From Octopus vulgaris (lineage: Eukaryota), in the NCBI GenBank assembly GCA_951406725.2, contig OX597826.1:35526001-35590000 (forward strand): a DNA stretch of 64,000 nucleotides. The letters run 5' to 3'. Positions 19,780 to 58,138 of the stretch are shown one piece after another (the first letter of the stretch is position 1; the number at the start of each line of letters is the position of its first letter). The position numbers and the translations under genes are program-made. A model generated the notes under the pieces. That model was not told where the DNA came from. It did not search any database and saw only the letters and a program-made list of their open reading frames with translations.

Positions 19780-20850
19780 TACCTACAATCTGTAGAAAAG
19801 GCATAGGTAGAAACTCTATAAGATGTATCCAGTGTAAGCTATGGACACATAAGAGGTGCAGCAATGTCAAAGGAAGGCTAACTAGGAAGATGGTTTTTGT
19901 ATGTGGCATATGCTCAGGAGCAATAAACACTGAAAATGTGCAGAGAACAACTTCCGTCACTTTCCAGGGAGCAAACCTAGAAGTAGTTGATAGCTTCCAT
20001 TACCTAGGTGACCAAGTCAGTAGCAGGGGCGGGTGTGCTGAAAGTGTAACAGCTAGAGTTAGAATAGCCTGGGCAAAGTTCAGAGAGCTCTTACCTCTGC
20101 TGGTGACAAAATGTCTCTCGCTCAGAGTAAAAGGCAGACTGTATGACGCATGTGCATGAACAGCCATGCTACATGGCAGTGAAACATGGGCCGTGACTGC
20201 TGAGGACATGCGTAAGCTCACAAGGAATGAAGCCAGTATGCTCTGAGGGATGTGTAATGTCAGTGTACATACTCGACAAAGTGTAAGTACCTTGAAAAGT
20301 TGGACTTAAGAAGCATCAGTTGTGGTGTGCAGGAGAGATGACTGTGCTGGTATGGTCATGTGGCGAGAATGGATGAAGATAGGTGTGTAAAAAGTGCCAC
20401 TCCCTAGCAGTTGAGGGAACCTGTGGAAGAGGTAGACCCAGGAAAATCTGGGATGAGGTGGTGAAGCACAACCTTCAAACATTAGGCCTCACCGAGGCAA
20501 TGACAACTGACCAAGACCTTTGGAAATATGCTATGCCTGAGAAGACCTGGCAGAACAAGTGAGACCATAAACTCATGGCCTTTACCAGGGATGTAGCCAG
20601 CCCATTTATGCATACCTTTCCTTCTTTGGACACAAAACTCTGCTTGCAAAGACCTGTTGAGGCAAGTGAAATTGAAATTGAATTCAAAATCGAACCAAAT
20701 CCGACGACTGGCACCCATGCCAACCTCCCTTTATTGGACACTAAACTCTGCTTGCGAAGACCTGTTGGGGCAAGTGAAATCGAAATTGAACCAAATTCGA
20801 TGACTGGCACTTGTGTCAGTGGAGTGCTAACAGCTCCATCTAAGCAGGAT
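19780..20850 (+). mobile_element. 5'-truncated RTE-clade LINE (RT C-terminus with Cys/His finger, 3' UTR)
   Basis: LEVVDSFHYLG, RVRIAWAKFREL, KGRLYDAC, LHGSETW and GRGRPRK.W motifs; stops and frameshifts; UTR has an internal ~105-bp duplication. Confidence 0.9.
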
Positions 20851-20982
20851 CATCAATTCCGTAAACCAGGAGAAAATTAAAAAAACATTTACCCTGTATT
20901 TCTTATACGATGCACCGTTTCATCTACTGTTTAATGGTAAACTAACCTGATTAAATTAAATCAAGCCAATCTACCATAGGCC
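20851..20982 (-). repeat. 132-bp inverted partial copy of the 490-bp unit
   Basis: Reverse complement of 21316-21447. Confidence 0.97.
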
Positions 20983-21292
20983 TGTTATTTCTAGTGGGTG
21001 AATGGCCTATTATGGCCGTTCCTTGATTGTGATGTTGAACTTAAAAATGGTTTATGACTATTTAATTTTTTCCCACTAGGCCGCTGGTGGCAATAAGATT
21101 CTACAAAATTTTTTTGCCACCCTATATTGATTAATTATGAATTTTCTGGTTAGTTCCGTAATGGAATCGGCGGCTTATATTTATTTGCTGCCGATAAATT
21201 TGGCGCGAGTGCGATGATTTGAAAATTTTAGGTCAGATATTGCCGAGGCAGGGATGAGAATGCCTCGTGAAAAATATCTGTTCCGACTTGGC

Positions 21293-21401
21293 TATTTCTT
21301 ACTGATGAATCTAAGGGCCTATGGTAGATTGGCTTGATTTAATTTAATCAGGTTAGTTTACCATTAAACAGTAGATGAAACGGTGCATCGTATAAGAAAT
21401 A
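21293..21401 (+). ncRNA. Type I hammerhead ribozyme (copy 1)
   Basis: Stem I tatttctta/taagaaata; CUGAUGA 21302-08; stem II atcta/tagat plus extended hairpin; GAAA 21377-80; stem III cggtgcatcg; GUA cleavage after 21392. Confidence 0.9.
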
Positions 21402-21782
21402 CAGGGTAAATGTTTTTTTAATTTTCTCCTGGTTTACGGAATTGATGTTATTTTGCGGTTGAAGCTTTTGGCTGTTATTTCTAGTGGGTGAATGGCCTAT
21501 TATGGCCGTTCCTTGATTGTGATGTTGAACTTAAAAATGGTTTATGACTATTTAATTTTTTCCCACTAGGCCGCTGGTGGCAATAAGATTCTACAAAATT
21601 TTTTTGCCACCCTATATTGATTAATTATGAATTTTCTGGTTAGTTCCGTAATGGAATCGGCGGCTTATATTTATTTGCTGCCGATAAATTTGGTGCGAGT
21701 GCGATGATTTGAAAATTTTAGGTCAGATATTGCCGAGGCAGGGATGAGAATGCCTCATGAAAAATATCTGTTCCGACTTGGC

Positions 21783-21891
21783 TATTTCTTACTGATGAAT
21801 CTAAGGGCCTATGGTAGATTGGCTTGATTTAATTTAATCAGGTTAGTTTACCATTAAACAGTAGATGAAACTGTGCATCGTATAAGAAATA
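21783..21891 (+). ncRNA. Type I hammerhead ribozyme (copy 2, G>T in stem III)
   Basis: Identical to copy 1 except at 21872; predicted cleavage after 21882. Confidence 0.85.
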
Positions 21892-22111
21892 CAGGGTAAA
21901 TGTTTTTTTAATTTTCTCCTGGTTTACGGAATTGATGTTATTTTGCGGTTGAAGCTTTTGGCTGTTATTTCTAGTGGGTGAATGGCCTATTATGGCCGTT
22001 CCTTGATTGTGATGTTGAACTTAAAAATGGTTTATGACTATTTAATTTTTTCCCACTAGGCCGCTGGTGGCAATAAGATTCTACAAAATTTTTTTGCCAC
22101 CCTATATTGAT

Positions 22112-22176
<65 letters not shown>

Positions 22177-47424: not shown

Positions 47425-49062
47425 AAGTTTAGCAATGATATCGGAATGGATTTTGGCCTTGATAAGTGTGCTAAAGCAACTTTTGTAAGAGGCAAGCTCA
47501 GGCAAACAGCTTCTGTTAAATTAGATATTGACACTACCATCAAGGAACTTGACCCACAGGAAAGTTACAAATACCTAGGAATCAACGAAGGAGATGGTAT
47601 ACATCATGCTACTATGAAGGAAAAAATAAGAAAGGAATACTATAGGAGAATAAGGCTTGTACTGAAGACTGAACTCAACTCCAAAAATTGCATTGAGGCC
47701 ATTAACACCCTGGCACTTCCAGTAGTCCAGTACAGTTTTAACATCATTAACTGGAACCTTACGGAACTCCAACGCTTGGACAGGAAGACAAGAAAGTTAC
47801 TGACATCCAAGAGCATGCACCACCCTAAGGCAGATGTAGACCGCTTGTACCTACCTAGAAGCAGCGGGGGAGAGGAATGATGCAATTAGAGCTGTGCTAT
47901 AAGACCTCTACTGTAGGAATGAACAGGTACCTATCTAGTACAAAGGACTGGATGCTGCGACTTGTGTGCGAACACGAAAGCAGCAAAAAGCTACATTCTA
48001 TTGTGAAGGAAGCTTATAAGTTCGAAAGGGAACTAGACATTAACCTTGAATCAGATGAAGAGCCGGAAACCACTGCTACCAAGCAAGCAAAGCGAATCAA
48101 GCAGACTGCAAAAAAGAACGGGCAGAATAAAATTGAGAGGCGGTGGAGCCAGAAGCCCCTGCATGGACAATATATTCTCCGAAGCCAAAATGCTGATGTA
48201 GACCAAGCAACAACCCATCAGTGGCTGAAGAGCTCTGGATTGAAAGCAGAGACTGAAGGTTTCATAATGGCAGCACAAGATCAAAGCTTGTTTACCAGAA
48301 ATTACCAGGCTAACGTTCTCCGAAACGGTACTGACCCTAAATGCAGATTCTGCGACACAGTTGACGAAATGATAGACCATCTCGTTTCGGGATGTCCTGT
48401 GCTGACACCAAACGAATACAAAAATCGCCACGATAGGGTAGGACAGTATATACATTGGAAGATATGTAAACACTACAAATCCGACACTCCTGCTAACTGG
48501 TATGAACACCATCCTCAGCCAGTTGTTGAAGGTAAAGATGTCACCATCCTCTGGGATTTTCCAGTCAACACTGACAGAACGATCAAGGCTAATCGACCAG
48601 ACATAATTGTTAAAGACAGGGAAGAAAATACCTGCAGACTAATAGAAGTAAGCGTCCCCACTGATAAAAATGTATCTGTCAAGGAATTTGACAAACTTAG
48701 TAAATATAAGGACCTGGAAATCGAAATACAGAGGATGTGGAATCTTAAAACAAAAACTGTTCCTGTTATTGTAGGTGCCCTAGGTATGATAAAAAAGGGA
48801 TGTCAGAAACACCTCGACAATATCCCTGGAAAACCATGTCTCAAGGAAATCCAAAAGATTGTGCTAACAAGTACTGCCCACATCCTTAGAAAAACCCTAT
48901 CAATGTAAATGTTTGTGTTTGCATTACATGGAGATATATCTCTACTTCCCCTCCCCAAGCTTTCAGCTATATTTCAACAACTCTTAACCTTCACTTGCCC
49001 TAGGGCGCTGGGTGTGCCCCGGCAGGTGATTGCATCAAACATGCAGATTAAAAATAAATGAC
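47425..49062 (+). mobile_element. 5'-truncated R4/Dong-like LINE (RT C-terminus, Zn knuckle, RLE; frameshift at ~47878)
   Basis: FGLDKC, YKYLG, DRLYLPR..GG, CRFC..HLVSGC, NRHD, NRPDII; 343-aa open frame; (AAT)n flanks. Confidence 0.95.
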
Positions 49063-57566: not shown

Positions 57567-57734
57567 ATATTTGTATATATATGTATGTGTGTGTGTGTGT
57601 GCATATATATATATATAGTACAAAGTAAGATAGGGGTTATGAGGGTAACCTACTATGGGATATCAGTTCAGAAAAATAAGAAAATAGAAATAATTAAATT
57701 AATAATTATTTACTAATTATATAATTGGACATCA

Positions 57735-57818
57735 TATCTGACAACTGTTTCGATTCAAGACTTTAGAAATTAATTAATATAATTAAGAACATTTTAAAGT
57801 TGAATCTCATCGGGGATA
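57735..57818 (-). ncRNA. Degenerate type I hammerhead with long stem II, inside a ~260-bp AT-rich element (57618-57880)
   Basis: tatcc CCGAUGA gattcaa..ttgaatc GAAA cagttg UC agata. Confidence 0.6.
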
Positions 57819-58138
57819 GAAAAAGACATACATTTACATTTTCATATTATTGCATGCTGAGTGTGCGGAACGAATCTGCTAACTAATATCATCATCATCA
57901 TCGTTTTCCATGCTAGCATGAGTTGGATGGTCCGACCGGGGTCTGGGAAGCCAGGAGGCTGCACCAGACTCCAGTCTGATCTGGCAGTGTTTCTCCAGCT
58001 GGATGCCCTTCCTAAGTCCAACCACTCTGTGAATGTAGTGGGTGCTTTTTACCTGCCAGGGGAGGCTGGCAACGGCCACGATCGGTTGGTGGTTTTTATG
58101 TGCCAATTATATATATGTGTATATATATATGTGTGTAC

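Follow-up and report, generated by a model that had tools for sequence, protein, structure and literature searches.

In Octopus vulgaris, a predicted type I hammerhead ribozyme has a stem II whose internal loop probably docks on stem I by GCC/GGC pairing, and the long hairpin beyond this loop would serve only to close the chain and to hold a short basal stem. The motif lies in a tandem retrozyme within the 64,000-nt stretch of contig OX597826.1 that we analysed (the window). The long arm is predicted to be stem II of this ribozyme: the CUGANGA and GAAA boxes, an NUH triplet and three stems are present, with stem I open as in type I hammerheads. The features discussed below are located as follows, in window coordinates.

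20851-20982, minus strand: inverted arm (unit positions 335-466), joined head-to-head, with the hairpin and the ribozyme 3' half and without the CUGAUGA box
20982-22118, plus strand: forward arm of the retrozyme, whose 3' end is at unit position 154-157 and which holds 2.3 tandem copies of a non-coding unit of 490 bp
21288-21293, plus strand: pseudoknot strand on the stem I side, UUGGCU, with core GGC at 21290-92, predicted from covariation
21293-21301, plus strand: stem I 5' strand, pairs with 21393-21401
21302-21308, plus strand: catalytic box CUGAUGA
21309-21313, plus strand: basal stem II 5' strand ATCTA, pairs with TAGAT at 21372-76
21314-21320, plus strand: internal loop 5' strand AGGGCCU, in which GCC 21317-19 is the predicted pseudoknot partner
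21321-21364, plus strand: hairpin cap, 19 bp with five G-U pairs and a 6-nt apex
21365-21371, plus strand: internal loop 3' strand TAAACAG, A-rich, predicted unpaired (0.88)
21377-21380, plus strand: catalytic box GAAA
21380-21391, plus strand: stem III, self-complementary over 12 nt
21390-21392, plus strand: GUA triplet, predicted cut after 21392 (position from the hammerhead consensus)
21393-21401, plus strand: stem I 3' strand, one T after 21399 missing relative to most copies
21405-21416, plus strand: tail motif GGTAAATGTTTT, common to the superfamily, which it defines independently of the pseudoknot
21778-21891, plus strand: second hammerhead copy with the same stem II (21799-21866), in which G21872T breaks a stem III pair
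22115-22176, no strand assigned: target tract, (AT)n, adjoining the forward arm at its 3' end

The element that carries the motif is high-copy, non-coding and tandem, with all hammerhead boxes and a covarying stem I. Its family pattern matches the genome 1,148 times, against one match in the control, and these dispersed, multi-copy units, each with a type I hammerhead and a highly self-paired RNA, have the make-up of animal non-LTR retrozymes, which are described as tandem units with type I hammerheads (PMC7229834). The 490-nt monomer folds with a z of -5.6 on the plus strand, with 65% of its bases paired and 27 G-U among 160 pairs. Contigs of runs guessed to be RNA cover the retrozyme; circles and tandem DNA are indistinguishable in contigs. 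Stem I shows three double compensations in 28 family copies and two-sided covariation at three of seven pairs. The predicted energy of stem III is -0.2 kcal/mol as a hairpin and -17.5 as a duplex of two copies, and the best predicted fold of the monomer blocks the core, lying 1.9 kcal/mol below the active fold; cutting is therefore likely to take place in tandem transcripts. A weak genomic hint of cleavage at the predicted site comes from an excess of arm starts between -4 and +12 of it (9 of 108 against 3.5 expected, in a range chosen afterwards); within -2 to +3 there are 2 of 108 (p 0.30). The G10.1-C11.1 pair, which is usual but not obligatory in type I hammerheads, is absent from all 64 family insertions sampled (A-U 24, A.C 30, G-U 9, U.U 2), and G-C is present at this position in relatives such as L179. 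The relatives L349, L379, L382 and L375 have CCGAUGA in place of CUGAUGA in several copies, a core change that may be inherited.

Every coordinate that the initial annotation gave for stem II holds: a 5-bp base, a 7x7 internal loop, and a 19-bp hairpin (21321-39/21346-64) of 14 Watson-Crick and five G-U pairs, the latter at 21327/58, 21329/56, 21331/54, 21332/53 and 21334/51, closed by the apex TAATTT. The predicted energy of the hairpin is -22.1 kcal/mol on the plus strand and -6.7 on the minus strand; the folding z of the surrounding 161-nt region is -2.87 and -2.01, respectively. If each mismatch were an even toss between G-U and A-C, five out of five G-U would come up by chance about once in 32. 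The annotation had pointed out that all non-Watson-Crick positions are G-U. This is true of the subfamily of the window copy but not of the family as a whole, in which 21325/21360 is unpaired in 31 of 64 insertions (U-A 33, A.A 21, U.U 6, A.G 4). The closing pair of basal stem II is A-U in the window copy and A.C in 30 of the 64; at the basal pair 21313/21372, A21313G and T21372C are both common in run X16 and the sister family L356 has G-C. An alternative pairing of ATCTA with a second TAGAT at 21325-29 was discarded, as its predicted probability is 0.00 and its T is an A in older subfamilies. The same stem II recurs in the second hammerhead copy, and reversed and partial inside the inverted arm.

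The pairing of the hairpin is conserved on the plus strand while its sequence and length are not, as judged from alignments and predicted folds. Among 28 distinct family copies 95.3% of hairpin cells are paired, and of the 19 pairs nine are invariant, six vary on one side, one varies on both sides and three depart only by mismatch. Hairpin changes common to several insertions comprise six that keep the pair, one that breaks it, one that restores it and one that exchanges mismatch for mismatch; six kept out of seven, against an expected 0.32, gives p 0.006, or p 0.017 when a break is scored for two separate single events at 21328. These lineage changes support the annotation's proposal of selection on plus-strand RNA structure. 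With one artefact set aside, changes confined to single insertions kept pairing in 4 of 10 cases. In insertion 62, nine seemingly pair-keeping changes proved to stem from an alignment artefact matching the reverse complement of the hairpin and were discarded, with 11 changes removed. In 21 wider homologues 92.7% of hairpin cells are paired and six rows carry a G-C/A-U swap at 21336/21349. Across 24 superfamily clusters stem II spans 41-73 nt with 6-22 distal predicted pairs, and folds better on the plus strand in 20 of them. Covariation among genomic copies, which the annotation had looked to as a test, is seen at this swap, in stem I and at the pseudoknot flanks described below, but the overall score of the hairpin in the 21 wider homologues does not exceed that of shuffles (178/500). 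Shuffling the hairpin letters lowered the predicted basal stem II from 0.96 to 0.07 or less in eight of eight trials, a result that sits well with a hairpin that holds the base together.

The annotation had further suggested that the internal loop replaces loop 2 in the tertiary contact with stem I. The sequence comparisons support this putative contact and specify it as a Watson-Crick pseudoknot in which GCC 21317-19 is complementary to GGC 21290-92 and the flanking pairs covary. In the window copy the flanks are U21293.G21316 on one side and U.U followed by U-A on the other, the U.U being pseudoknot pair -1 of the window family. A pseudoknot-free model of this copy leaves GGCU unpaired at only 0.24 because distal stem I competes for it. 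The superfamily used for comparison was set by the tail motif after the cut (6,632 genome matches against 32 in the control) and hence without regard to the pseudoknot strands. In 17 superfamily clusters the best complementarity of the two strands scores 12.06, compared with 8.77 when shuffled (0/1000) and 11.07 when partners are swapped (p 0.027). Both GG and CC occur in 24 of 24 pooled clusters, a set limited to copies whose boxes and stem I are intact. In these clusters the four flanking pairs are Watson-Crick in 58 of 96 cases against 45.7 expected (p 0.001). Part of the 17- and 24-cluster samples was drawn with a pattern requiring SCCW, and the clusters are related, so that permutation p-values are optimistic. 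A sample drawn regardless of GCC has both triplets in 27 of 39 distinct copies and anchors 13 of 17 clusters, the other four lacking an anchor by the rule of the script, with 17 further matches having no usable core; its pairs -1 and -2 are paired in 18 of 26 cases against 12.5 expected (p 0.016).

The two G-C core pairs never vary and so yield no covariation signal. The third core pair does vary: it is C-G in 19 clusters and U-A (GGU/ACC) in L367/L396 and in L393, which stand on branches parted by well-supported nodes, L393 being a single copy on a long branch. The pair next to the third is U-A or C-G between L367 and L396, which gives L396 six Watson-Crick pairs. GG and CC are fixed at linked distances from the core in the pooled set, in which spacer lengths are correlated (rho 0.70), a correlation not replicated in the GCC-unbiased sample (rho 0.30, p 0.32). 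At the level of sequence, and among related clusters, stems I and II thus carry complementary strands that are conserved and show compensatory change. For the same strand pair (the 5' side of stem I and the stem II loop) there is no excess of complementarity in 24 clusters outside the superfamily, and we rejected a general pseudoknot of all long-stem families on this ground. Two observations by the way concern other families. At L189:2460-2560 the 15 bases that lie upstream of the core are perfectly complementary to the stem II 5' arm, possibly a switch or a long pseudoknot in another family, and in L180 and L193 the stem II loop strand could, by eye, pair with the 3' rather than the 5' strand of stem I.

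Covariation of this kind cannot separate pairing in cis from pairing in trans. GGC and GCC might accordingly pair between the two copies of a dimer, or hold an inactive fold, instead of docking within one copy; the stability of stem III only as a two-copy duplex and the core-blocking best fold of the monomer would both suit such an arrangement. We nevertheless consider it unlikely, since the same class of contact is activating where it has been tested (as reported in part of PMC3088659) and the linked spacer lengths suit a fixed geometry within one core. We give less credence again to the idea that the arm is a tolerated insertion, with GGC and GCC kept separately by protein binding or shared descent and the hairpin adding only general self-pairing. 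The invariance of the core pairs, the relatedness of the clusters and the high pairing of the whole monomer speak for such an account, other long-stem families do without such complementarity, and subfamily C breaks two pairs, yet spread; the account leaves the matched GGU/ACC changes in two branches and the covarying flanks to be explained. Docking of the stem II internal loop on stem I accommodates these matched changes.

The annotation had also raised the possibility that the hairpin is a substrate of Dicer or ADAR, and we regard its retention for either purpose as very improbable. The total arm length of 68 nt is pre-miRNA-like, but the Dicer proposal found no support, as the cap has 6-22 predicted pairs among relatives and its length is not conserved. 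With regard to ADAR, three runs guessed to be RNA have A>G and T>C changes, in their contigs, that are absent or rare in a DNA-like run (X1-X4 and X12 were guessed to be RNA and X16 is DNA-like, all of them contigs). At hairpin position 21321, for example, the A>G depth is 75.7/93.8 in X1 and 121.4/216.2 in X12, compared with 93.8/1,427,354 in X16. The runs come from other individuals, such that alleles could contribute to the apparent editing. Editing-like changes do therefore occur, but they are not confined to the hairpin: they are also found in the loop (21366, 21370) and the GAAA box (21378-80), and runs of T>C outside stem II make both strands appear edited although the minus-strand hairpin is weak. 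This distribution, over loops, core, sequence outside stem II and both strands, points to the inverted arms, which give a far longer perfect duplex, rather than to the hairpin. Such a pattern agrees with editing of the two strands of the long duplexes into which those arms fold, not with selection of the stem II hairpin. An origin of the G-U pairs as remnants of A-to-I editing that reverse transcription made permanent is barely credible and was rejected: the element appears edited and five of the six pair-keeping lineage changes are A/G opposite U, but the mutation spectra show no sign of it, private changes being strand-symmetric (A>G 23/126 A, T>C 30/185 T, G>A 55/110 G, C>T 37/69 C), with A>G 4 and T>C 5 among the changes that every unit of an insertion shares, and with A>G 5 and C>T 5 in young subfamilies and G>A 10 and A>G 3 in older ones among polarised lineage changes, all of them small numbers.

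Whether so long a stem II is atypical, as the annotation had it, depends on the standard of comparison. It is atypical against the literature, in which helix II has 4-5 bp in most type I motifs and 6-8 bp is termed long (PMC4209133 and other papers on Penelope-like elements, cited from parts of them). It is not so against this genome: matches to a generic core pattern number 12,464 (275 in the control) when stem II is set to 32-62 nt and 4,828 (312 in the control) when it is set to 4-31 nt. The pattern required G10.1-C11.1, and both overlapping matches and decayed copies are counted. Among the first 100 matches listed, on contig C1, are numerous unrelated hammerhead families whose stem II spans 32-62 nt. 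Searches for a short-stem form of the window family found none: one gave 20 matches against 5 in the control, none in the family by BLAST, and another gave a single match, at an arm junction. Rfam hammerhead models find no match in the window copy at the gathering score or at E up to 10, and it is probably the long stem II that defeats them. The window holds a second, unrelated hammerhead-like motif on the minus strand at about 57715-57830, whose stem II spans 55 nt and whose core box, CCGAUGA, begins at 57813 (region z only -0.45). Elsewhere, at 47859-48905 on the plus strand, a 349-residue open frame resembles one in L043 and is probably a retroelement fragment.

The way in which the element is inserted points to mobilisation by Penelope-like elements. 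Of 64 insertions sampled, 41 showed both ends of two arms, and in 33 of these the two 3' ends map one to unit 44-62 and one to unit 148-168; (AT)n adjoins 98 of 105 insertion ends. An inverted truncated arm, two fixed 3' ends and microsatellite targets are thus all present. Penelope-like elements are described, in the accessible parts of these sources, with inverted truncated arms, two reverse-transcription start sites and AT-rich targets (PMC11167929; bioRxiv 10.1101/2021.04.23.441226), and they share with the window element a 5'-truncated inverted arm, two fixed 3' ends, AT-rich/(TA)n targets and a palindromic stem III; the window unit differs from them in having no ORF and in the distance between its two 3' ends, about 100 nt instead of 30-40 (PMC4209133; PMC11167929; bioRxiv 10.1101/2021.04.23.441226). 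In a young Penelope-like family, L262-L267, the frames, of 808-811 aa, are intact, the arms stand head-to-head and the targets are (TA)n. As an autonomous partner this family finds no evident support in its end, which, read by eye, is not evidently like that of the 490-bp unit; a degenerate short hammerhead-like motif follows its frame, also by eye. We take the frame of L154 to be Penelope-like from its RT and GIY-YIG motifs; a Pfam search with it returned no match. L166, considered as a long-stem hammerhead before a Penelope frame, turned out to be a junction with another truncated element.

Several further observations concern the ends of the element. TTGATT precedes both fixed 3' ends (window 21033 and 22115-22118; unit ~52 and 154-157) and is a candidate reverse transcriptase signal, and a distal end motif is common to the retrozyme and to distant family 2. 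Three short back-to-back restarts at L229:1163-1445, over stem I, the core and the hairpin arms, suggest template jumps at the hairpin; the junction in L347 is similar. In the window, the end of the inverted arm lies at neither usual site and is without (AT)n, and degenerate repeats of ~108 bp occupy 20531-20810, just left of that arm.

Much of this architecture has counterparts in print. Animal non-LTR retrozymes, like the window element, are non-coding, low-GC, self-paired tandem units with a type I hammerhead and a palindromic stem III, and Penelope-like elements co-occur with them; in what is available of these sources the units of invertebrate retrozymes are 170-400 nt, against 490 nt in the window (PMC7229834; bioRxiv 10.64898/2026.07.22.740005). 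The canonical animal type I motif joins a 6-bp helix I to a 4-bp helix II by loop contacts, according to the part of PMC4209133 that covers it. In the window element the predicted stem II spans 68 nt and lacks G10.1-C11.1. The closest design is found in type III hammerheads, both in the HDV-like circular RNAs of toad and termite and in related insect genomic motifs; these have the same succession of stem, loop and hairpin in one helix and the same GCC/GGC pairing: helix I consists of a 5-bp stem, an internal loop with GCCR and a hairpin, and GCCR pairs with YGGC in loop II (part of PMC7936874). In that type III motif helix I forms the long arm, the partner is terminal loop II and the cap is about 20 nt (the same part of PMC7936874), whereas in the type I motif of the window copy it is helix II that is long, the predicted partner lies 5' of stem I, both partners are internal and the cap reaches 44 nt. 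Hammerheads with a stem I-stem II pseudoknot, mainly of type II, pair the nucleotides after the stem II 5' strand with the stem I loop, as predicted in the window copy; their stem lengths are linked, and they are reported for all three types (PMC3088659, in part, as for what follows). In a type II hammerhead disruption of the pseudoknot lowers the rate 20 to over 100 fold. The pseudoknot strand of type II is a free 3' tail, whereas in the window copy the hairpin returns the chain to GAAA (PMC3088659). Highly repetitive type I motifs were left out of the stem-length analyses in that paper. We found no paper describing an internal-loop pseudoknot in animal type I repeats, although supplementary motifs of PMC7229834 and PMC4209133, those from mussel above all, may resemble it. 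The principle of the pseudoknot, the class of retrozyme and a mirror-image design are thus already in print, and it is the form in animal type I repeats that we did not find in the literature.

Taken together, our data are consistent with a mechanism in which the strand leaving basal stem II would pair with the strand entering stem I in the folded RNA, setting stems I and II side by side, like the stem I-stem II pseudoknot of other hammerheads, and so raising the rate of cutting at cellular magnesium. The hairpin would return the chain to GAAA and hold the weak basal stem, and the brace may matter more because the window family is without G10.1-C11.1. The palindromic stems III of two tandem copies would then come together, and cutting would set free RNA of unit length, which the enzyme of a Penelope-like element would copy into (AT)n tracts. 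On balance, we lean towards regarding this as an undescribed architectural class of animal type I hammerheads, whose stem II has a hairpin-capped internal loop in kissing contact with the strand next to stem I; it would be present in thousands of retrozyme copies that are invisible to Rfam and would be an independent mirror of the toad and termite type III design, and other long stems II may hide contacts of their own. The class of element and its chemistry are unchanged by the finding. The natural compensatory variants are ready-made mutants for a direct test. As long-stem cores outnumber short ones in this genome and Rfam misses the window copy, the number of genomic hammerheads in animals may have been underestimated. 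Published accounts of animal retrozyme hammerheads give them a short stem II and loop contacts of a non-canonical kind; if our reading holds, the large superfamily marked by the tail pattern would use a base-paired, loop-to-loop brace instead.
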